A DNA stretch of 64,000 bases from an uncultured Bacilli bacterium (GCA_934095965.1 CAKOKR010000001.1:2047-66046); one strand, 5' to 3'; counted from the first letter of the stretch, positions 393 through 11,219 are shown. The notes: generated from the letters alone by a model not told the origin. Numbers and translations are program-made.

Positions 393-968
393 ATGTATTT
401 TATAAATGTTGATAATACGGAACTCGATAATCTCCTGAAGAGAGCAGACCCAATTGAATATCACATCAAAGCATTTGAAAAACTCTTATCACTATTAAAT
501 AGCTGTGTTAATAAAATAATAATATCATTCCTTGATGAATATAAAAATGTTTTAAAAAATAAAAATATTTTACAATATAAAACATTAACAGAAAAAGACT
601 ATGAACAAATTGGAATTAACTTTAGTGCTATTGCTAAAAAATATAATATGACAGTTCAAACATGTTTTGAGGATAGAAACTTAACAGAATATGGCTTCAT
701 AAAAGAAGATTGCCTATCTCACAAACTTGCTTACTACTTAACGGGTAAAAAATATAAAAGTTGGAAGTCTCGTAAAGGAAGAAAATACAATTGTGTAGAA
801 ATGGTAGACATCGGTGCATACGACACTTGTAAACATTTCTGTAAATATTGTTATGCAAACTATGATGAAAACAAAGTAAACAATAATACATTAAATCACA
901 ACTCCAATTCATCATTAATAACAGGTACAATTACAGATAAATATACAATAAAGATAAGAAAAATTTGA
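393..968 (+). pseudogene. Truncated second copy of a DUF1848 family gene (C-terminal ~185 aa only)
   Basis: Residues IEYHIKAFEKLLSLL...CKHFCKYCYANYDE...KIRKI are ~90% identical to the C-terminal half of the 4102..4989 product. The first ~20 codons are unrelated. There is no N-terminal GRTDIIAFY region. Confidence 0.55.
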
Positions 969-1283
969 CAAAATTCAAGTTCAAATTGTTAGTGAAAATA
1001 AAAAAAATATACGTAAAAAAGGAGTTGATAATATGAAAGAAAAAGAAAAAAAGGATTTGATGATATAGACATAGAAAAACAATGGAATGATATGATTAAA
1101 GAAGTGCTAGAATTACTTGATCCAGCCATGGATGATATGCCTTCCGTTGCTTTAAATTGACAAACACCAAATGAATATTGAAAACAACAATAATAAAAGC
1201 ATAATTAATAAATCTAAAAAGATATATAAACTAGATTAAAGTCTCGGTACACCTGAGATTTTTTTCTACAAAAAATATCATCC

Positions 1284-1295
1284 CTATGTTATAAT
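1284..1295 (+). promoter_or_regulatory. Extended -10 promoter element (TGtTATAAT) upstream of the helicase gene
   Basis: tatgTTATAATat lies 20 nt upstream of the RBS and ATG at 1317. A hairpin plus T7 terminator lies just upstream at ~1240-1270. Confidence 0.4.
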
Positions 1296-1316
1296 ATACT
1301 AAAGTAGGTGTAACAT

Positions 1317-3581
1317 ATGAAAGAAGAATTTATAAAAAAGTTAAATAATAAAGAATATATTTCTAAGTATTTATATCTCAAAACCAATGAAGAAGATTCT
1401 AGTATATTACCATATAATTTTGATATAGATAAATATAATGAAGAAGTAATAAATAATGATTTAATCAAGTATCATGATTATTTTGATAACATGTATAAAG
1501 ACATTGACTCAAATATAAAACTTGATATAGATCAACAAAAAGCAATACTTACCGATGAAGAATATTCATTAATTATCGCCGGTGCAGGAACAGGCAAAAC
1601 CACAACCATGGCATCAAAAATAAAATATCTTGTTGACATAAAAAAAGTAAATCCCAGTGAAATACTAGCTATAAGTTTTACCAAAAAAGCTACCGAAGAA
1701 CTAGAAAAAAGAATAGTAATTGATTTTAACATACCCGCTAAAGTAACAACATTTCATTCTCTAGGTTTCATGTATATCAGAGAAATATTTAAAAATCACA
1801 AATGTTTTGTAGTTGACAATAACACCCGCAACAACATATTTTTAAAATACTTTAAAGAAGAAATATTTCCAAATAAAGAAACAGTTAAAGAGCTACTTTC
1901 GTTATTTAATTCAACTACTGTTAAAAAAATATGGCTATTCGGTGATTACTTTCAAAAAAACTATAATAAATATAATACATTTGATGAATACTTCATAAAT
2001 TACAAAAAAGATAAATTAAAAGAAATACCAGATTTAACAAAATGGTTACAAGAAAGAATAGATAAATCTATAAATAGTGAGGTAATATATACAATTAACA
2101 ATGAATTAGTTAAATCAAAAGGTGAAGCTATAATTGCAAATTTTTTGTTTAAAAATAATATTGATTATGTATATGAAAAAGTCTATGAAAAATTAATGCC
2201 TGATAATAAAACTTATAAACCTGATTTTACCCTTAATCTTGGCGGAGAACCAGTATATATTGAATACTTTGGCTTATCAACATACAAAAGTGATGAACTA
2301 AATAGGTATGAAAAAATAAAAAAACTAAAAGAAGAATACCACTATAAACATCATAATAAATTCATTAAAATAGACTATCAAAAAAATGAAGATTTAGAAA
2401 AAACACTAGCAAGTGAACTAACAAAAATGGGATTTACTTTAAAACCTAAAACAGATATAGAAATATACAACCAAATACTTGATAACAACGAAACATCCCA
2501 AATGTATCCATATCGTGATTTATTATATTCAGTTATTGATCAAATTAAATCATCAAATAAAAGAAAAAAATATATTGAAGAAGTGGATAACTATATCAAA
2601 AAAACAGTATCAATCGAAGAAAAAGAAATGTGTAAAAAACAATTTAAGTATATAAATGAATTTTATATCTATTATCAAAAAGAGTTATATGGAAGTGAAA
2701 CTTATGGATTTGATTTTGCTGACATGATATATTATGCTAACCTATATATAAATAATGTTGATAATAACACAGATTTAAATTTCAAATATATAATTATTGA
2801 TGAATATCAAGATATATCTGAAGATCGTTACATCTTAACAAAAAATGTTGCTAATAAAAATCACGCTAAAGTAGTTGCAGTAGGTGATGATTGGCAATCA
2901 ATATTTTCATTCACAGGTTCAAAGATTGAATACATATATAACTTTTTATCATATTTTCCAACTGCCAAAATATTAAAGATTGCAAAAGCATATCGAAATA
3001 GTAAAGAATTAATCAAGTATTCAAGTGACTTTGTCATGAAAAATGATGAACAAATTAAAAAGGTTTTAATATCTGATAAAGAAAATCCTAATCCAATAAA
3101 GTTTGTAATGTTTGATGATGGCGAAGAAGTATCAAAATTAAAAGAATTAATATTAGCAATTAACCAAAGAAATAAAAATAGTCACATTTTAATACTAGGC
3201 AGAACTAATAGAATAATTGATTCTTTATTTGATGATGCAACATTCATTGATGAGGTTGAAACAAAAATAAAATTCGCAGGTTACAACGATATTGACATTG
3301 ATGGTATGACTATTCATAAATCAAAAGGATTAACTAGTGATGAAGTAATTATAATTGGTCTAGATAATAATTTTCCTAAATCAAACTACGGAGACTTTTG
3401 GTTAAAAGAAATATTTAAAAATAAATGGTATCAAGAAAAAATAGCATTTGCTGAAGAACGTCGTTTATTTTATGTTGCACTAACCAGAACTAAAAACAAT
3501 GTCTATCTCTTAGTTAATAAAAATATATCTAAACGTAGTCCATTTATTAATGAAATTTACAACATTATATTGACAAAATGA
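1317..3581 (+). CDS. UvrD/PcrA-family superfamily-1 DNA helicase with an inserted PD-(D/E)xK-like nuclease module (helicase-IV-like architecture)
   Basis: Walker A IIAGAGTGKTTT. Walker B/DExx IIIDEYQD. C-terminal motif VI VALTRTKNNVYLL. An internal segment GEAIIANFLFKNNIDYVYE...KPDFTL...YIEYFG resembles restriction-endonuclease-fold modules. Confidence 0.8.
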   Translation: MKEEFIKKLNNKEYISKYLYLKTNEEDSSILPYNFDIDKYNEEVINNDLIKYHDYFDNMYKDIDSNIKLDIDQQKAILTDEEYSLIIAGAGTGKTTTMASKIKYLVDIKKVNPSEILAISFTKKATEELEKRIVIDFNIPAKVTTFHSLGFMYIREIFKNHKCFVVDNNTRNNIFLKYFKEEIFPNKETVKELLSLFNSTTVKKIWLFGDYFQKNYNKYNTFDEYFINYKKDKLKEIPDLTKWLQERIDKSINSEVIYTINNELVKSKGEAIIANFLFKNNIDYVYEKVYEKLMPDNKTYKPDFTLNLGGEPVYIEYFGLSTYKSDELNRYEKIKKLKEEYHYKHHNKFIKIDYQKNEDLEKTLASELTKMGFTLKPKTDIEIYNQILDNNETSQMYPYRDLLYSVIDQIKSSNKRKKYIEEVDNYIKKTVSIEEKEMCKKQFKYINEFYIYYQKELYGSETYGFDFADMIYYANLYINNVDNNTDLNFKYIIIDEYQDISEDRYILTKNVANKNHAKVVAVGDDWQSIFSFTGSKIEYIYNFLSYFPTAKILKIAKAYRNSKELIKYSSDFVMKNDEQIKKVLISDKENPNPIKFVMFDDGEEVSKLKELILAINQRNKNSHILILGRTNRIIDSLFDDATFIDEVETKIKFAGYNDIDIDGMTIHKSKGLTSDEVIIIGLDNNFPKSNYGDFWLKEIFKNKWYQEKIAFAEERRLFYVALTRTKNNVYLLVNKNISKRSPFINEIYNIILTK

Positions 3582-3619
3582 TAACATGTGTGTATTATAT
3601 TATCTAAAGAAGGAATAAT

Positions 3620-4102
3620 ATGAATATATTTGTAACATCAGACACACATTTTAATCATAAAAACATAATTAAATATTGCCATAGACCATATAAAGATGTC
3701 GAAGAAATGAACGAAGCAATAATTAGTAATTGGAATAACTCTGTAACAAATGATGACATTATTTATCATCTCGGAGACTTTGGCTTTGGAACTAAAGAAG
3801 AGTTAAAACAAATTTTTAATAGATTAAATGGTCAAAAATATTTAATAATGGGTAATCATGATAAAAAAGTAGGTAGAAATTATTATCTTGAACTAGGTTT
3901 TATTGATGTATATCGCAAGAAATGCCTACTTGATAATTATATTCTAACCCATGAACCAATAGAAGTAGAAAGTGATAAAATAAATCTATATGGTCACATT
4001 CATAATTCTGATATCGATCCTATCTTTGATGATCCAAATCACAAATGTATCTGCCTTGAACAAACTGATTATAAACCACTTTTACTAATGAGGAAAAAAT
4101 AA
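3620..4102 (+). CDS. Small calcineurin-like metallophosphoesterase
   Basis: Motifs SDTHFNH, LGDFGFG and MGNHD match the MPP superfamily signature (D-x-H, GD, GNH[DE]). Confidence 0.75.
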   Translation: MNIFVTSDTHFNHKNIIKYCHRPYKDVEEMNEAIISNWNNSVTNDDIIYHLGDFGFGTKEELKQIFNRLNGQKYLIMGNHDKKVGRNYYLELGFIDVYRKKCLLDNYILTHEPIEVESDKINLYGHIHNSDIDPIFDDPNHKCICLEQTDYKPLLLMRKK

Positions 4103-4989
4103 TGGTTTTATTTGTAAGTGGAAGAACAGATATCATAGCATTTTACACAAAATGGTTTTTAAATAGATTAGATGAAGGCTTCGTTGATGTAAGAAACCCA
4201 TTTAATCCTAATCTAGTAAGTAGAATCAATTTTTCTGATGTTGATTTAATTTTATTCTGCACTAAAAATCCAATTCCAATAGTAAACCACTTAGATAAAA
4301 TACCAAAACCATTTCTATTTCATGTAACAATAACTCCATACAAAAATGATATTGAACCATATGTCCCTTCAAAAACGAAAGTGATTGAAGCTGTCAAAGA
4401 AATATCAAAACAAATTGGTAAAGAAAACATAGTAATAAGGTATGACCCAATTTTCATAAGTGACAAATACACTATTGAATATCACATCAAGGCATTTGAA
4501 AAACTCTTATCACTATTAAATGGTTACGTTAATAAAATAATAATATCTTTTCTTGATGAATATAAAAATGTTTGCAAAAATAAAAATATTTTACGATATA
4601 AAACATTAACAGAAAAAGACTATGAACAAATTGGAACTAACTTTAGTGCCATAGCTAAAAAATATAACACGACAGTTCAAACCTGTTTTGAAGATAGAAA
4701 CTTAACAGAATATGGTTTCATAAAAGGAGAATGCTTATCACATGAACTTGCTTACTACTTAACAGGTAAAAAATATAAAAGTTGGAAATCACGTAAAGGT
4801 GATAAATGCAATTGTGTTGAAATGGTAGATATCGGAGCATACAACACCTGTAAACATTTCTGTAAATATTGTTATGCAAACTATGATGAAAAAAAGGTAA
4901 ATGAAAATTCATTAAAACATAACCCCAATTCATCACTAATAACAGGTACAATTACAGATAAAGATACAATAAAGATAAGAAAAATTTGA
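4102..4989 (+). CDS. DUF1848 family protein with a C-terminal Cys cluster
   Basis: The N-terminus GRTDIIAFYTKWFLNRL and the C-terminal CNCVEMVDIGAYNTCKHFCKYC Cys cluster are typical of DUF1848. Its ATG overlaps the upstream stop (ATGA). Confidence 0.7.
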   Translation: MVLFVSGRTDIIAFYTKWFLNRLDEGFVDVRNPFNPNLVSRINFSDVDLILFCTKNPIPIVNHLDKIPKPFLFHVTITPYKNDIEPYVPSKTKVIEAVKEISKQIGKENIVIRYDPIFISDKYTIEYHIKAFEKLLSLLNGYVNKIIISFLDEYKNVCKNKNILRYKTLTEKDYEQIGTNFSAIAKKYNTTVQTCFEDRNLTEYGFIKGECLSHELAYYLTGKKYKSWKSRKGDKCNCVEMVDIGAYNTCKHFCKYCYANYDEKKVNENSLKHNPNSSLITGTITDKDTIKIRKI

Positions 4990-5042
4990 CAAAATGATAA
5001 TAAAGTGATAGAATATACCCCAATACAAAGGGGTGTTTTTAA

Positions 5043-6725
5043 ATGAATAATCAAAAAATAGAAACAATAAAAAGTCTCTATTCTGGTGCAAAAGCATACA
5101 CTATGTTTATAGTAGAAGAACGTCAACATGATAATGCTAAGGTTGACTATATTTTAGAAGATAAATATTATAATTGTGCAAGGCTTGGATTTATTACCAA
5201 CATAATGCTTGCAATAAAAGAAGAATTAGTAGAAAAAGTATCATATCATAATTTTGAATCACTAGTTTTTAATAATGAACTAGAAAAATCAGTAAAATGT
5301 ATTGCAAGTAAAGTAAGTAATGGTTATAAAATAGATAACTATGTATTTGATACAATACCAAATTTAGTGGCCACTCTAAGAGATAAACTTGCACATGGAA
5401 ACTATATAATATGTAGTAATTACAAAGAAATAACAATAATTCTAGATGATAAAGGTACCACAATTAATATTGAAATAGACAAATTAGCAAAATTTGTTAC
5501 AAATGCAATGATAAGTTTTATAAAAAAACAAAATCCAAAAGAATTTGTTCGTAAAAACATTATGTTTAGCAAAATAAAAAATGGTGATAAGCCATTGTTA
5601 TCAAAATCAGAAGTAAGGTTTGTAAGTAAAAATGCAAAAAGAGTAACAATCAAGTTCAAAAGAAAAGATGGTAAAGATTTAACAGAAAAAGAAACAGAAA
5701 GATTAGAAGAATATTGTGACATTTTAAAAAAAGATAGTAGCAATGAAACTATTGAAAAAATAAAAAAAATAACAATGTATACATACGATTTTACATACGA
5801 AAGAAAACCAATTGCTAACATAAATTATGATTTAATAGCAGATGTATTAATGTCAAGTTACAAAAATGTTAAACTTGAACGCCAATTAATATGTATAGCA
5901 TTTTTAATTGAAAAAATGATTGATGATACGAATACTTTACAAGAAATAATGGCATCAATCAACAATCTAATTTTGCTTAAAGCAATTTATGAAAATAAAA
6001 GTGTTGACATGAATTATGTCTCAACAAAATTAGATGGTAAAGAAATATCCAACGGTATTATGGAATTAGCAAATGCAGCAATAACATTATTCCAAACATT
6101 ATTTTCATATGCAAATGATGATGTATTCAAAAATGATTTTGAGTATCAACAAACACAAAGTAATGGACTAGACTACGGGAAATTAGATTTATCAAATATA
6201 AAAGTATTAGTATATCCAACAGATAAAAGTCCAATTGATGTATATCTAGAGCAAAAGAAAAAAGCTGATAGAGAATATGCAAATATTCAAAAAAACATTG
6301 CTAAAGTGATTGAAAACAAAAATAATGCTATTAAAAATAACAATCAAAATGCAATTTCAAATATAAATCAAGTATTAAATACTTTAAAACAAACTGAACA
6401 AATAAAATTGCAAGATAAAATAAAATGTGATACAGAATATAATAACGTATGCACTTATGAACAAACAAATAAAAAACATCTAATTAATAGATCAATAATT
6501 AATGGAATAAGAAATTGTATTGCACACGGAAACTATCGAATCGTTCATGGAAAAACTGTAAGTGATGCAACATTAGTATTTGAAGATATACATAACAAAA
6601 AGTTAACATTCAAAGCAGTAGTAAATCCTATTGATTTTATAAATATGATTTATGAAAATGAATGGGTTGTAACTGAATTTTTAAATAATTTAACAACTCA
6701 AAACACATTAACTAGACAAAAATAG
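5043..6725 (+). CDS. Hypothetical protein with two HEPN-like Rx4H motifs (putative RNase of an Abi or defence type)
   Basis: RDKLAHGNY lies at about aa 113-121 and RNCIAHGNY at about aa 490-498. Both are R-x4-H followed by GNY. The RBS is AAAGGGGTG. Confidence 0.5.
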   Translation: MNNQKIETIKSLYSGAKAYTMFIVEERQHDNAKVDYILEDKYYNCARLGFITNIMLAIKEELVEKVSYHNFESLVFNNELEKSVKCIASKVSNGYKIDNYVFDTIPNLVATLRDKLAHGNYIICSNYKEITIILDDKGTTINIEIDKLAKFVTNAMISFIKKQNPKEFVRKNIMFSKIKNGDKPLLSKSEVRFVSKNAKRVTIKFKRKDGKDLTEKETERLEEYCDILKKDSSNETIEKIKKITMYTYDFTYERKPIANINYDLIADVLMSSYKNVKLERQLICIAFLIEKMIDDTNTLQEIMASINNLILLKAIYENKSVDMNYVSTKLDGKEISNGIMELANAAITLFQTLFSYANDDVFKNDFEYQQTQSNGLDYGKLDLSNIKVLVYPTDKSPIDVYLEQKKKADREYANIQKNIAKVIENKNNAIKNNNQNAISNINQVLNTLKQTEQIKLQDKIKCDTEYNNVCTYEQTNKKHLINRSIINGIRNCIAHGNYRIVHGKTVSDATLVFEDIHNKKLTFKAVVNPIDFINMIYENEWVVTEFLNNLTTQNTLTRQK

Positions 6726-6814
6726 TAACTATAGTTACCCGCGTATATACCTAGAAAAATAAGAAAATGTAATAGGTTAAAATAACTATTGCATTTTTTA
6801 TTTAAAAAAATAAC

Positions 6815-6843
6815 TTGTATATCAAACATACGTGTGCTATAAT
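6815..6843 (+). promoter_or_regulatory. Sigma-A-like promoter (TTGTAT - 17 nt - TATAAT, with TGc extended)
   Basis: Consensus spacing, upstream of the 6954 gene. Confidence 0.5.
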
Positions 6844-6953
6844 AGATGTATCAATTCAAAAAAGTTTTGGAATTGATAACTGTATGTTGATTAAGTATTC
6901 ATATTGAAAAAGGTACAAAACATTTAAAAATTTTGTTATCTTTTGGAGGTAAT

Positions 6954-7322
6954 ATGAAAACAGAAATAACAAAATACTTACATCAACATAAATCTACGAA
7001 TTTCTCTAGTCTTCTGTTTTTATATATTGATAAAAGTGGGCTAAAGGATTCAATGATTTACAAAAAAGCTGGCATCGATAGAAAATTATTTTCAAAAATT
7101 AGATGCAACGATTATATTCTAAACAAAAAAACTATTATAAGGTTATGCTTTGTTTTAAAATTATCACTAGATGAAGCAAATAAACTTTTAAATAGTGCAG
7201 GATATGCATTAAGTAAAAGTCAAGACTTTGATTTAATCATTCAATATTGTTTAGAAAAAAAAATATATGACTTGTATATCGTAAATGAAATGCTAGAAAC
7301 TTTTTTAAAAACTGTTCTTTAA
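6954..7322 (+). CDS. Hypothetical small protein (possible HTH-like)
   Basis: GGAGG RBS 6 nt upstream of the ATG at 6954. The long ORF listed from 6933 is less likely to be real. Confidence 0.4.
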   Translation: MKTEITKYLHQHKSTNFSSLLFLYIDKSGLKDSMIYKKAGIDRKLFSKIRCNDYILNKKTIIRLCFVLKLSLDEANKLLNSAGYALSKSQDFDLIIQYCLEKKIYDLYIVNEMLETFLKTVL

Positions 7323-7335
7323 CAGTATTTTTTTT
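7308..7335 (+). terminator. Rho-independent terminator
   Basis: aaACTGTTctttAACAGTattttttttt. Confidence 0.5.
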
Positions 7336-7449
7336 TGCAATTTTTCCCTAAGATATGCCAAAAACATGTCGCCAAAATTTGTCGCTTTTAAAGCGACCAC
7401 ATTACCCATCTTTTCTAGTATAATTGATTTATCGAATGGAGGAAATAAT

Positions 7450-7959
7450 ATGAAAACAAATATGCAAATGTTAAGAAATTTAATTAGAGAGGAGGAAGAA
7501 AATCTAGATTTAATAAGATTTAGTAGTCAAGATTATTTATTTAATAAAGTAAATGAAGAATTAAATGGTAAAGTCACAATTCTTGTCGATAACACAGAAA
7601 AAATGTTAGAAAAACTAAAGGAGGTAGAAGATTTAACAAATAAAATTAATTACCTTAAAAGAACTTTGTTCGAAAAAGAAAATGAACTAAGACTAGAAGA
7701 TGGAAGAACAGTGAAGGAAGCATCAGTAGAAAATAAATACAACTTAAAGTTAAAGTATTATTATGAAGCTCTTTTACGTAAAGAAAATAAAAAAATAAGA
7801 ATGACAGATTCTAAAAGTGCATACTTCTTAGAATATAAATTAAACGTTGATAGAAATGAAATTAAAGAAAAACTAAAGAAAATCAGTGAAGAAATAAGAA
7901 ATACAACTAATAAAATAATTAGATTAAATGGCGAATTTTTTGAAATAGATTTACCATAA
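7450..7959 (+). CDS. Hypothetical coiled-coil protein
   Basis: aatGGAGGaaataatATG. The upstream ORF extension lacks an RBS. Confidence 0.4.
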   Translation: MKTNMQMLRNLIREEEENLDLIRFSSQDYLFNKVNEELNGKVTILVDNTEKMLEKLKEVEDLTNKINYLKRTLFEKENELRLEDGRTVKEASVENKYNLKLKYYYEALLRKENKKIRMTDSKSAYFLEYKLNVDRNEIKEKLKKISEEIRNTTNKIIRLNGEFFEIDLP

Positions 7960-8140
7960 TGGTACCATAAAGTTATTGAATGGTTTAAATTAAGTAAAAC
8001 TTAAGCCAGTACTTTATAAAACAGATGATTACGTACTTCAAAATAAGAAGTCTAACCACCTCGTTACCTAAAGTTTTATAAAGTAGGTAAGTGCATCTCA
8101 ACTTGGGATGCACTACCAAATATTAGAAAGGAAGGTTATT

Positions 8141-8446
8141 ATGAATAAATATGTATATGAAACAGAAGATAAAATAAAAATGGGATTAGTATTAAATTTA
8201 GATAAAGTATACAAGTCTTTAAAAAATTTTAAAGATTGCTATAAAAGAATTTATAACAGAATGGATTATCGTAGCACCAAAAAGTATTATTACAAAGGTA
8301 AAATATATACGGAAGAGGAGTTGCTTGAAAACAATTTTGAAAAAGATGAAGAAGGTATATTCGGTTGCATGCCGATATACACAGAAGAAGAAATATTAAC
8401 AAAAATAAAAGATTATTTATACGAAGTATGGAATTTAATAGAATAG
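8141..8446 (+). CDS. Hypothetical protein
   Basis: RBS gaaAGGAAGGttattATG. Confidence 0.4.
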   Translation: MNKYVYETEDKIKMGLVLNLDKVYKSLKNFKDCYKRIYNRMDYRSTKKYYYKGKIYTEEELLENNFEKDEEGIFGCMPIYTEEEILTKIKDYLYEVWNLIE

Positions 8447-8457
8447 GAGGTAAAAAG

Positions 8458-9126
8458 ATGTCACGTAAAAGAGAAATATATAATTTAGAATATTATATAG
8501 AGGATGGAGAAACTCTAGAAGAATTAGCAGATAGAATTATCAAGGATATAAAGAAAAATTTTAAAACAAATAATCAAAAAGAAAAATATCCAACTGAAGA
8601 ATTAAAAACAATAACAAAAATAACATATTATGATAAATTAAAAGTAGATGCTGATGATCTAATTCAAGGATTGGTAGTGGAAGTTAATAATGAACCATTT
8701 ATTATTTTAGATATAAGCTATGGTTTAAGTATTAGCACATTAGATATGATAACAAATGAATTAAAAAATAATAAATCAAGAAACTTCACAATTTATGAAA
8801 TTAATAAAAATGATTTTCAATCTGATATAAAATTTGGAGAAATAAAAAAAGTTCAACTTTACCGTAAGGCTGAACTAGAAAATAAAATAAACGGAAAAAC
8901 ACTTTGTAAATCTGATATAATTGAATTTACAGATTACAATGACAAGAAATTTTACGTTGATTACATTAACAATGATATATATAAAAGAGAAAATCTCTAT
9001 AAAATAAATAAACATGGTAAAATAATAACAGTATTTGAAAGACATAAATTAAATAGTGTAAATATAAAAACATTTGACACACTAACATACAAGTTAACAA
9101 AAATAACAAAAAACTTAGAAATATAG
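8458..9126 (+). CDS. Hypothetical protein
   Basis: RBS ataGGAGGtaaaaagATG. There is a 12-nt gap after the previous gene. Confidence 0.4.
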   Translation: MSRKREIYNLEYYIEDGETLEELADRIIKDIKKNFKTNNQKEKYPTEELKTITKITYYDKLKVDADDLIQGLVVEVNNEPFIILDISYGLSISTLDMITNELKNNKSRNFTIYEINKNDFQSDIKFGEIKKVQLYRKAELENKINGKTLCKSDIIEFTDYNDKKFYVDYINNDIYKRENLYKINKHGKIITVFERHKLNSVNIKTFDTLTYKLTKITKNLEI

Positions 9127-9264
9127 TTTACATGTAAAGAATAAATGTACAGAAAAAATAGTAACAATAATCTTTCATAATTAAAACTTTACAAAGAAAT
9201 GAAAAAAGTAATAGTTCCAAATAATCATTTGTGGTACAATATAGATAAGAAAAGAGGTAAAAAT

Positions 9265-9621
9265 ATGGAAGTAAATGATTATTTGGTGACTAAAGACAGA
9301 GAAGACCTTTTGTCATCACTAAAAAAGGTAAACAGAATAATAATAAACAAGAAACTAAGAGAATTAGATTTGGAAAATCTTCAAGAATTAAAAAAGTATA
9401 TCTTAGAACACTTAAAGGACAGTATCAAAAATATAAAGGATAGATGGTTACTTAACGTTCATTTTGAAACACTTTTGACAAATGAAAACAAAACTTTGTC
9501 ACTTGATCCAAGTGATATTGAAAACTTTATAGTATTTCTTTATGAAGAAGATGGAGAAATAAAATATTATATGCCAACTGAAGTAAAAGATATAATAAAA
9601 AGGTCAATAAAAGTAAAATAG
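9265..9621 (+). CDS. Hypothetical protein
   Basis: RBS aaAGAGGtaaaaatATG. Confidence 0.35.
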   Translation: MEVNDYLVTKDREDLLSSLKKVNRIIINKKLRELDLENLQELKKYILEHLKDSIKNIKDRWLLNVHFETLLTNENKTLSLDPSDIENFIVFLYEEDGEIKYYMPTEVKDIIKRSIKVK

Positions 9622-9684
9622 TAATAATTTCTAGTGATTTTTATTTCTTTTAGTAGTATAATAAAAAGTAGAAATGAGGTAATT

Positions 9685-9843
9685 ATGGAAGAAAAAAATA
9701 AATTAGAAACTTGCAGTTGTGAAGAATGCAGTTGTGAAGAATGCAATTGCGAAAACTGTGATTGCGAAGAATGCGATTGCGAAGACTGTAAATGTCAAAG
9801 TTGTGATTGCGAAGAATGCAACTGTGAAGATTGCGATTGTTAA
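9685..9843 (+). CDS. Cys-rich acidic repeat peptide (52 aa, 18 Cys; eight 5-aa C-x-C-E-x repeats plus a terminal CDC)
   Basis: RBS aatGAGGTaattATG. The sequence is MEEKNKLETCSCEECSCEECNCENCDCEECDCEDCKCQSCDCEECNCEDCDC. Its own hairpin plus T-run terminator follows at 9851-9880. Confidence 0.5.
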   Translation: MEEKNKLETCSCEECSCEECNCENCDCEECDCEDCKCQSCDCEECNCEDCDC

Positions 9844-9850
9844 ATATGAA

Positions 9851-9880
9851 AGTTCTGTACTAAAATACGGAACTTTTTTA
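9851..9880 (+). terminator. Rho-independent terminator after the Cys-repeat peptide gene
   Basis: AGTTCTGTActaaaaTACGGAACTttttt. Confidence 0.5.
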
Positions 9881-9891
9881 ATGGAGGTAAA

Positions 9892-10092
9892 ATGGATAGT
9901 AGAACAGGTTATAAACTTAGATTATTAAGAACTAAATATGGATTAACTCAAAAAGATTTAGCAAACCTTTTAAACAAGAGTATTTCTCAAATATCAAATT
10001 ATGAACGCGGAAGAAGAAATTTAGGCAAAAATGAAATAGAAAAAATATGTAATCATCTTAAAATAAATAGAGAATTTTTTGATAATAATTGA
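9892..10092 (+). CDS. XRE-family HTH transcriptional regulator (short, 66 aa)
   Basis: GLTQKDLANLLNKSISQISNYERGRR is a classic HTH_3/Cro-C1 signature. RBS taatGGAGGtaaaATG. Confidence 0.75.
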   Translation: MDSRTGYKLRLLRTKYGLTQKDLANLLNKSISQISNYERGRRNLGKNEIEKICNHLKINREFFDNN

Positions 10093-10114: not shown

Positions 10115-10150
10115 AATCAGTCTAGAAAAATCCAGACTGATTAATTATTA
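10115..10150. terminator. Bidirectional rho-independent terminator
   Basis: AATCAGTCTagaaaaatccAGACTGATT. A T-run lies on the plus side and an A-run upstream, so it also serves as a minus-strand T-run. Confidence 0.55.
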
Positions 10151-10213
10151 TCTTTTTCTATAATCAAAGTATTCCCAGATTACATAAATAAGAAAATTTA
10201 AAAAATCTAACAT
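10148..10213 (-). CDS. 21-aa hydrophobic micro-ORF (MLDFLNFLIYVIWEYFDYRKR), possible small toxin or leader peptide
   Basis: Perfect SD AAGGAGG 5 nt upstream of the ATG on the minus strand. The ORF ends at the bidirectional terminator. Confidence 0.3.
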   Translation of the reverse strand: MLDFLNFLIYVIWEYFDYRKR

Positions 10214-10334
10214 AATGCCTCCTTAATTATAGAGACCCTGATTAAATTATTATATATGATGTATCAATTTTTGTAAAGATAGCTAGACATAATTATCAAA
10301 ATATATTATGATATTCATATGAAAGGATGATAAT

Positions 10335-11219
10335 ATGAAAAGTAAAGTATATTTCATAAAAGAAATAACAAGTGAAAGTTTAATCAAAATTTATGAAAGT
10401 TTAAATCAAGAATTAAAAGGAAGAGTTGCAATAAAAATATCAACTGGTGAACCCGGAGGACATAATTTCTTAAATCCAAATTTAATAAAAGATTTAGTTA
10501 ACAAATTAAATGGAACAATAGTTGAATGTTGCACAGCATATGCTGGAAAAAGAGAACATCCATCTGATCACTGGCAAGCAATCAAAGACCATGGTTTTTA
10601 TGACATTGCTCCTTGCGATATCATGGATGAAGAAAAAGAGATAACTATTCCAATTAATGGTGGTAAACACTTAAATGGAATAAATTATGTTGGAAGTCAT
10701 ATTAAAAATTATGATTCCATGCTTATGTTGTCACATTTTAAAGGACATGTAATGGGTGGCTTTGGTGGAGCTTTAAAAAATATGTCAATCGGAGTATCAT
10801 CAAGAAATGGAAAAGCTTGGATTCACTCAGCTGGAAAAACAACGGTTCCCGAAGAATGTTGGAAACTTGAAACAAAACAAGATGATTTTCTTGAAAGTAT
10901 GGCAGAAGCAGATAAATCAGTAGTAGATTATTTCAAACCAGAAAATATGTTATATATTAATGTTGCAAATAATATTTCAATTGATTGTGATTGTGATTCA
11001 AATCCGAAAGAACCAGAAATTGCAGATATAGGTATATTTGCATCAATAGATCCAGTTGCACTAGATAAATGTTGTTATGATACAATAATGAGTCTAATAG
11101 AAGTTGGAGCAAATTCGCTAAAAGAAAGAATGCTTGATAGACATGCAATTCACACAGTTGAAGAAGCAGAAAAGTTAGGATTAGGAACAACTGACTATGA
11201 ATTAATAAATATTGATTAG
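10335..11219 (+). CDS. DUF362 domain protein
   Basis: MKSKVYF...AIKISTGEPGG...ECCTAYAG... matches the family pattern. RBS GAAAGGATGataatATG. Confidence 0.6.
   Translation: MKSKVYFIKEITSESLIKIYESLNQELKGRVAIKISTGEPGGHNFLNPNLIKDLVNKLNGTIVECCTAYAGKREHPSDHWQAIKDHGFYDIAPCDIMDEEKEITIPINGGKHLNGINYVGSHIKNYDSMLMLSHFKGHVMGGFGGALKNMSIGVSSRNGKAWIHSAGKTTVPEECWKLETKQDDFLESMAEADKSVVDYFKPENMLYINVANNISIDCDCDSNPKEPEIADIGIFASIDPVALDKCCYDTIMSLIEVGANSLKERMLDRHAIHTVEEAEKLGLGTTDYELINID

Follow-up and report, generated by a model that had tools for sequence, protein, structure and literature searches.

A hypervariable cysteine-rich pentapeptide-array micro-gene of gut Bacilli and its possible metallothionein-like role

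The subject of this report is a very short gene in a 64,000-nucleotide (nt) stretch of DNA from an uncultured Bacilli bacterium (GCA_934095965.1, CAKOKR010000001.1:2047-66046), the whole of which, at ~25% GC, is called the window here. The gene is a micro open reading frame (micro-ORF) running from ATG to TAA, and its product, MEEKNKLETCSCEECSCEECNCENCDCEECDCEDCKCQSCDCEECNCEDCDC, consists of a short leader and a cysteine-rich array of the five-residue unit C-x-C-E-x. The gene stands last in a cassette of orphan genes and is followed by an XRE-family helix-turn-helix (HTH) gene and a DUF362 gene, both adjoining it as the original prediction for this DNA had described, with rlmB-sigH-secE-nusG downstream. 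The coordinates are collected in Table 1.

Table 1. Features of the micro-ORF locus and its surroundings, in window coordinates; aa, amino acids; TRF, Tandem Repeats Finder; L131 and L134 are diverged lineages
Feature	Position	Strand	Remarks
Orphan cassette: 560, 122, 169, 101, 222 and 118 aa	5043..9621	+	Linked to the peptide by co-occurrence only
560-aa orphan	5043-6725	+	Exactly two R-x4-H motifs: LRDKLAHGNY (aa 113), IRNCIAHGNY (aa 490)
Promoter-like region: -35 GTGATT 9634-9639, 17-nt spacer, -10 TATAAT 9657-9662	9634..9662	+	Read from sequence
Shine-Dalgarno (SD) GAGGT, 5 nt before ATG	9676..9680	+	Kept in 29/29 loci, including L131 and L134
Micro-ORF, complete, 52 codons + TAA	9685..9843	+	Translation gives exactly the 52-aa peptide first predicted
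N-terminal leader MEEKNKLET, 9 residues	9685..9711	+	Every allele has MEEK[DN]KLE[ST]
Repeat array: 8 full 15-nt units + terminal CDC, (C-x-C-E-x)8-CDC	9712..9840	+	TRF, alignment of units
Intrinsic terminator: 12-bp hairpin (GC core 9852-9859 / 9866-9873), then U6	9848..9879	+	Folding
XRE-family HTH gene	9892-10092	+	Intact solely in the window's lineage
DUF362 gene	10335-11219		

Translation and TRF agree with the original prediction in the extent of the ORF, its 18 cysteines and its 15-nt/5-residue repeat; TRF reports a 15-nt period in 8.5 copies at 9712-9839, together with a 45-nt super-period. A two-unit degenerate codon motif, TGYNNNTGYGANNNNTGYNNNTGY, occurs seven times in the window, each time inside this ORF, and in none of 100 shuffles. 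The ribosome-binding site and the terminator that had been claimed for the gene are also present. The terminator hairpin (dG = -12.6 kcal/mol, z = -4.6) is matched by 0/200 shuffles; a simple terminator scan does not pick it up, and the folding test does. In L131, L134 and a third locus, L143, the stem still pairs because its changes compensate each other. On the 5′ side, L131 and L134 retain the context of the -10 box, GTAGTATAAT, and, 17 nt from it, a hexamer resembling a -35 element (GTGATT and ATGAAA, respectively), while the spacer is otherwise altered in both. A consensus promoter scan is silent here because the -35 element fits the consensus at only 3/6 positions. The leader is constant except for N/D and T/S exchanges, even where the protein encoded next to it, the 118-aa orphan, falls to 74-75% identity. 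The ORF is predicted as a gene on metagenome contigs, and an Rfam search of the region matches no family. The locus is thus an autonomous mini-gene, with a putative promoter, an SD, an ORF and a predicted terminator.

The peptide has a mass of 5.9 kDa and comprises 8.6 units of CxCEx. Cysteine makes up 35% of it (18 of 52 residues), against 1.15% across 15,319 background codons. Aspartate and glutamate together account for 20 of the 52 residues (~17 of 43 in the array) and lysine for three, giving a pI of ~4 and a net charge of ~ -18. Every cysteine falls in an alternating CxC/CxxC spacing in which the residues at position 2 are small and polar. Among the 147 units of the 17 alleles described below, Glu occupies position 4 in 141; N, D, S, G, K or E (once C) is found at position 2, with N or D in 110; and position 5 is E, N, D or S (once K). 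The original description of every other residue as acidic therefore holds for position 4, where Glu is nearly always found, and not for positions 2 and 5, which are acidic only often. The cysteines at positions 1 and 3 are lost just twice in the 147 units, each time to tyrosine (L143, L165). The window allele contains no F, W, Y or H, and two other alleles have one Tyr each. Metallothioneins are operationally recognized by low mass, very high cysteine content, cysteines in CxC, CxxC or CC motifs and the lack of aromatic residues and histidine, a description that fits the window allele.

Codon usage in the array, taken over all alleles, is skewed in its own right. TGC stands at 52% and AAC at 57%, where the background has 19% and 20%; GAC falls to 1% (background 14%), and GAG and AGC are at 0%, a pattern that differs from a uniform liking for C-ending codons.

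To follow the gene beyond the window, 29 loci were gathered from gut metagenomes of relatives of Clostridium sp. CAG:609, by walking outward from the peptide, the DUF362 protein and the 118-aa orphan, and by a further metagenome scan anchored on the SD, the start codon and the leader. Seven metagenome contigs, whose sample names are of the human-gut type, encode the exact 52-aa peptide. The loci represent 17 DNA alleles that encode peptides of 37, 42, 47, 52, 57, 62 and 87 aa, or 5.6 to 15.6 units, and the ORF is open in 29/29 loci and 17/17 alleles. All alleles end in C[DN]C, save one that ends in YDC. In ten loci the neighbouring 118-aa protein is identical, and yet seven different peptide alleles of 47-87 aa occur among them, so the array evolves far faster than its flanks. 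Any integer step in unit number is seen within the range and multiples of four are not favoured, which matches the expectation for units that add ligands independently.

The same variability lends itself to a null explanation, in which the ORF is a young, lineage-restricted product of a minisatellite, weakly maintained or not maintained at all, and would have no specific function, its intactness following from 15-nt units that stay in frame and are free of stop-prone codons. The confinement of the peptide to one narrow clade, the extreme length polymorphism behind an identical neighbour, two further array frames that are free of stops, and the tolerance of Cys-to-Tyr changes in two alleles are all in keeping with it. 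Indeed, the original prediction had named unit numbers varying between strains, as in a non-coding microsatellite, as part of the outcome that would speak against a gene. Such variation is found, but non-coding status is not borne out, because the frame is open in all 17 alleles and the changes cluster at third codon positions. In a minimum spanning tree of the 31 distinct units, 22 of 38 changes lie at third positions of plus-strand frame 1 (P = 0.0016). Cysteine codons change once at positions 1-2 and ten times at the wobble position, which alternates only between C and T and never yields the TGA stop or TGG (Trp). A non-coding minisatellite or variable-number tandem repeat would not be expected to carry such a reading-frame signature, nor cysteine codons whose TG is near-invariant. 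Pairwise counts of synonymous and nonsynonymous changes fail to separate the reading frames, and the third positions of frame 1 coincide with those of one antisense frame; this antisense frame has stops in 3/17 alleles, the window's included, and has neither an SD nor a conserved start. Frame 1 of the plus strand is the sole frame that is open in all alleles and flanked by conserved signals. The frame call therefore rests on the third-position excess, the antisense stops and the conserved SD, ATG, stop and terminator.

The XRE gene supplies a built-in control. It begins 50 nt downstream of the peptide gene and has been repeatedly inactivated over the same period: in a comparison of this position in the window, L001 and L126-L165, the gene is, in the other 16 of the 17 alleles, cut down to 21, 26 or 37 codons, deprived of its start codon by a change from ATG to ATA, or missing altogether. 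Meanwhile the leader, SD, -10 box and terminator of the peptide gene are kept at 74-75% neighbour identity. Because the frame stays open, changes fall in excess at third positions and the signals are conserved while the adjacent XRE gene decays, the micro-ORF is, on this comparative evidence, a real gene in which purifying selection appears to preserve the Cys-x-Cys-Glu register and to leave unit number free to drift. We regard a weakly selected or unselected ORF as rather unlikely.

The fate of the neighbours also bears on how the gene might work. The original prediction had grouped the peptide with the XRE regulator and the DUF362 protein in a small metal-handling or redox (Fe-S) module, and this grouping is rejected: the XRE gene has decayed in 16/17 alleles and DUF362 is kept without the peptide. 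The block DUF362-CinA-MnmL/YtqA-RlmB-SigH is maintained in relatives that lack the peptide (L128-L130), with DUF362 at 81-87% identity. In these relatives no Cys-rich ORF lies upstream of DUF362, and unrelated cargo is found there instead.

A purely cis-regulatory function would make the ORF a leader peptide, in which ribosome stalling at its 18-32 Cys codons reads the charging of Cys-tRNA and controls the terminator downstream. A short ORF rich in Cys codons, followed 5 nt past its end by a terminator hairpin, has the outline of such an attenuator. However, no antiterminator pairing is seen (by inspection only) and Rfam holds no match. Beyond the terminator, the XRE gene is a pseudogene or deleted in 16/17 alleles, the next element is a convergent minus-strand micro-ORF with a terminator of its own, and DUF362 retains an upstream region of its own in relatives without the peptide. 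Of all the explanations considered here, attenuation is the least probable.

Scarcely more credible is a precursor of a ribosomally synthesized and post-translationally modified peptide (RiPP), which the original prediction had offered as an alternative and in which the Cys-rich core would be modified by an unrecognized maturase among the orphans of the cassette. The peptide is short and Cys-rich and lies beside several proteins of unknown function, and some RiPP classes vary in the copy number of their core units. Yet the peptide matches no NCBIfam or Pfam model for SCIFF, ranthipeptide, sactipeptide or other precursor families, and no SPASM/radical-SAM maturase, YcaO, lanthionine synthetase, peptidase or exporter is found nearby. 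The only radical-SAM gene in the neighbourhood encodes the housekeeping tRNA-modification enzyme MnmL/YtqA (TIGR01212, 312.9 bits against a cut-off of 180), which is retained where the peptide is absent, and a leader of just nine residues is short for a RiPP. The RiPP suggestion is accordingly given up as very improbable.

Upstream, the peptide gene is the last gene of the orphan cassette, and wherever a locus has sufficient flanking sequence the gene order is identical. The relatives L128-L130 lack the cassette, whose link with the peptide is one of co-occurrence only. The two R-x4-H motifs of the 560-aa orphan, which lie in near-identical contexts, suggest a two-HEPN RNase-like protein; a weak PF18736 HEPN match stands in a precomputed table, but hmmscan in this analysis did not reproduce it. 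The 118-aa orphan has homologues at ≥74% identity only, belongs to a cluster that includes GenBank CDF20881.1 of Clostridium sp. CAG:609, and gives a structure prediction with a predicted local distance difference test (pLDDT) score of 44. The cluster places the window in a close relative of that uncultured gut Firmicute. For the other cassette proteins, Pfam, NCBIfam, PHROGs and PADLOC return nothing informative. Phage sequences searched by tblastn with the peptide and with the 560-aa and 222-aa proteins give no match, and neither do plasmids searched with the 560-aa protein.

Ahead of the cassette, in a site that spans ~393-9621, lie genes for a UvrD-type helicase, a phosphoesterase and two DUF1848 proteins (one truncated), and the upstream proteins match defence-associated PADLOC models (GajB-like, DRT-associated). 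In relatives the same site holds DUF6119 and an orphan with Abi_2 nearby, or NERD/HTH_38/N6_Mtase, or small orphans. Because the window and its relatives carry differing, defence-like cargo here, the site upstream of DUF362 appears to behave as a variable, defence-type hot-spot.

Homology searches return little for the peptide itself. In agreement with the prediction that it resembles neither SmtA nor SCIFF, no curated family is matched: NCBIfam gives nothing at E ≤ 1, and the sole Pfam match is Pentapeptide. A word-indexed search of 5.8 billion proteins finds one strain variant and no true homologue, and phmmer against 1.84 billion representatives finds periodic look-alikes only, without a self-hit. 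The exact 52-aa sequence is missing from the cluster look-up, yet it lies on the seven contigs noted above in the contig look-up. Absence of homologues is therefore weak evidence, because small, low-complexity ORFs are unevenly indexed. Selected micro-proteins of this type escape family libraries, and protein collections index them patchily.

The Pentapeptide match raises the possibility of a miniature pentapeptide-repeat protein, that is, a right-handed quadrilateral beta-helix with a strongly acidic surface that mimics nucleic acid as Qnr and MfpA do, perhaps modulating a partner in the cassette. Members of this family (PF00805; Qnr, MfpA, McbG, Rfr) share with the peptide a five-residue period, N or D at the second position and acidic residues at outward positions. 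Against the A[D/N]LXX consensus the units can be read in a register in which C1 corresponds to A (i-2), x2 to N/D (i-1) and C3 to L (i), with N or D at x2 in the 110 units already noted; cysteines would then occupy both inward positions, and the fold might form with the help of metal ions or as an oligomer. The PF00805 score is 17.9 bits for the window allele, under the gathering threshold of 20.2, and 23.1 bits for the 87-aa allele, which passes it. In a phmmer search of the Protein Data Bank (PDB) with the 87-aa allele, only pentapeptide-repeat proteins score below E = 1: designed beta1 solenoids (2.5e-9), Qnr 3pss (3.3e-5), QnrB1, McbG-like proteins and Rfr. True pentapeptide-repeat proteins (P0003, P0008) are also among the phmmer matches from the 1.84 billion representatives, and the defence-like cargo of the site in relatives would suit a nucleic-acid mimic.

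Several features stand against such a fold. The bulky hydrophobic Leu/Phe core of the family is replaced by cysteine in essentially every unit, and the cysteines add nothing to the alignments. The peptide's 6-16 repeats compare with ~20-40 or more in solved pentapeptide-repeat proteins; 5.6-15.6 units would make just 1.4-3.9 coils, without capping elements and without a preference for multiples of four. A single-sequence AlphaFold2 model of low confidence (pLDDT 60, predicted template modelling score, pTM, 0.33) contains no solenoid, and Foldseek finds 0 PDB matches to it; a model of such low confidence is still compatible with a metal-dependent fold. Moreover, E-values are inflated when a periodic low-complexity query meets periodic targets. 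A genuine pentapeptide-repeat protein is unlikely, though it leads the alternatives to the chelator favoured below. A related and somewhat more remote idea is a metal-templated, Cys-cored solenoid or another rigid polyanionic rod that serves as a nucleic-acid mimic or bait in an undescribed conflict cassette headed by the two-R-x4-H protein, its length following an arms race with phages and not the tuning of metal capacity. Should either hold, the peptide would represent a new sort of small component in defence-island biology.

Thiolate metal binding is the most plausible chemistry for a peptide of this composition. Our tentative preference, with somewhat less than an even chance, is for a cytosolic peptide that would chelate soft metals through its many thiolates in the manner of a metallothionein, with repeat number determining its capacity. 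Given the CxC/CxxC alternation, each adjacent pair of units could offer three or four thiolates to one soft metal or metalloid ion, with Cu(I), Zn(II), Cd(II) and As(III) as candidates. The apo-peptide would probably be disordered and fold around metal-thiolate clusters. Capacity would scale with unit count. Slippage among the 15-nt repeats, or unequal recombination between them, may readily add or remove units without ever disturbing the frame. What the sequences show is how the gene is built, that its frame is under selection, that Cys and Glu are conserved and that its length is polymorphic; metal binding, the identity of the metals, the cytosolic location and the physiological role are inferences.

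A number of observations weigh against a chelator. Pure thiolate chelation would not need the near-invariant Glu at position 4, and known metallothioneins are rich in Lys, Ser and Gly, whereas this peptide is rich in Glu and Asp. The Pfam and PDB searches with the 87-aa allele brought up pentapeptide-repeat proteins and no metallothioneins. No metal exporter, sensor or chaperone is found among the cassette or window genes scanned, the site resembles a defence-type hot-spot and not a metal island, and analogous micro-ORFs in other lineages have no consistent metal-gene neighbourhood.

Cysteine at this density could alternatively serve as a thiol redox buffer that scavenges oxidants or electrophiles, or as a reservoir of cysteine or sulfur, in a strict anaerobe lacking glutathione (the low-molecular-weight thiol status being assumed). 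A soluble, acidic peptide that is 35% cysteine would be apt for this, and a protective part under oxidative stress has been ascribed to metallothioneins (PMC7558416). Among the matches listed from other low-GC genomes are Fer4_13 ferredoxins with a fused CxC[DE]x array and an array that links NrdD to glutaredoxin. The locus, however, shows no link with a thioredoxin, a peroxiredoxin or sulfur metabolism, and bulk thiol chemistry needs neither a strict CxC/CxxC register nor a conserved Glu. A redox or storage role is therefore given a small chance.

If the peptide is a chelator, it has partial parallels in several known systems. Hpn of Helicobacter pylori is a free-standing, low-complexity metal-storage micro-protein of ~60 aa that has been characterized experimentally; it is His-rich, binds Ni and has a periodicity different from that of the CxCEx peptide. 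Natural phytochelatins are products of enzymatic synthesis with gamma-Glu linkages. In contrast, the synthetic phytochelatins (Glu-Cys)n-Gly, such as EC11 and EC20, are gene-encodable Glu/Cys polymers designed for metal chelation, and their capacity rises with n (PMC4292183); they are artificial and follow a strict EC dipeptide repeat. The gene would, if metal binding is true, provide a natural counterpart to these engineered chelators.

Among metallothioneins, the copper-inducible subfamily 7b of Tetrahymena is built from the block CKCXXCKC (PMC1808422). Its members share with the peptide an iterated C-x-C-x-x-C-x-C, a modular architecture, the absence of aromatic residues and a small polar residue within CxC. 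They differ in being eukaryotic and Lys-rich, with longer and less regular modules and no sequence homology to the peptide; metal binding is demonstrated for them and would be predicted from sequence here. The bacterial metallothioneins SmtA/BmtA and MymT, the latter a protein of ~5 kDa that was once an unannotated small ORF (PMC7558416), are likewise small, Cys-rich cytosolic peptides, and the CxCEx peptide matches no curated model for either family in NCBIfam or Pfam. SmtA adopts a zinc-finger fold in which His residues act as ligands, MymT is non-repetitive, and neither is strictly periodic, acidic or length-polymorphic.

Two further comparisons concern the binding site and the variation in length. 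In the As(III) site of ArsR, ELCVCDLC, three cysteines bind As(III) (PMC8674403), and flagellin has been given a hexapeptide from the site to serve as an arsenic-binding motif (PMC7876115). Each unit junction of the array, E-x-C-x-C-[E/D]-x-C, reproduces this alpha3 metalloid box of ArsR/SmtB proteins, Cys spacing included; ArsR carries a single site in a winged-helix repressor, whereas the peptide is an overlapping concatemer without a DNA-binding domain, and the likeness is one of motif only. In the modular OdiMT2 metallothionein of Oikopleura, repeat number differs among natural populations and metal capacity is proportional to it (PMC8283569). The population-level variation in the count of Cys-rich repeats is common to both systems, although the repeat of OdiMT2 is a domain of ~12 cysteines rather than a pentapeptide, and the organism is eukaryotic. 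Against this background the peptide is best read as a strictly periodic, acidic and hypervariable variant, apparently new, of the metallothionein-like class, with a Cys-cored pentapeptide repeat as the alternative. If the peptide does bind metal, bacteria would have a strictly periodic, acidic counterpart of metallothioneins in which a rapidly mutating 15-nt repeat determines the number of ligands, and which would offer a simple system for the tuning of metal capacity by repeat number within one human-gut species.

Similar arrays occur elsewhere. A loose pattern scan of genome contigs (GAN, 3 units) gives many chance matches in GC-rich genomes and does not reach the window's species. Free-standing micro-ORFs include MIEYKCENCDCENCDCENCNCENC[ND]CK, which occurs on three contigs, has an SD and is tightly packed in an operon; MxxxCDNPNCECENC[QT]CENC... 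on two contigs; and MKMSGNNCKCENCTCESCTCESCNC beside phage-tail-like ORFs. Among the matches listed, further micro-ORFs of 25-55 aa and the same design, such as MIEYKCENCDCENCDCENCNCENCDCK, lie on IMG/VR contigs and in marine and soil metagenome-assembled genomes (MAGs), and the loci that carry micro-ORFs of this type are L147, L152 (9557-9640, plus strand) and L153; L148 and L150; L149; L080; L058; and L088. These free micro-ORFs belong to no Pfam or NCBIfam family, apart from one sub-threshold Pentapeptide match. The 'viral' label of L152 is doubtful, as genes resembling those of bacterial type IX secretion systems are present on it.

Arrays of CxC[DE]x with 3-5 or more units are also found as C-terminal tails, N-terminal extensions or linkers of larger proteins, again among the matches listed. 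The Pfam-verified proteins bearing them there are DeoC, Fer4_13 ferredoxins, NrdD (before the glutaredoxin domain), DUF1292, GrpE and AcpS, and the fusions listed come from L031, L065, L113, L043, L013, L118 and P0009, low-GC Bacillota/Bacilli MAGs. This distribution suggests a portable Cys/acid array that may have been invented recurrently in low-GC bacteria, and not homology. In a broader form of the conflict-cassette idea, CxC[DE]x arrays would be an unrecognized portable module of many low-GC anaerobes, deployed free or as tails; the broad and narrow forms share between them the slim probability given to that idea.

The convergent minus-strand micro-ORF between the XRE and DUF362 genes (10148-10213) encodes a hydrophobic peptide of 21 aa, MLDFLNFLIYVIWEYFDYRKR. 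It has a perfect AAGGAGG SD at ~10223-10229 and a terminator with a 12-bp stem at 10115-10142, both on the minus strand. Three variants of it are kept across lineages, L134 and L135 among them, and the product has a likeness to type I toxin-like peptides, to judge from its sequence.

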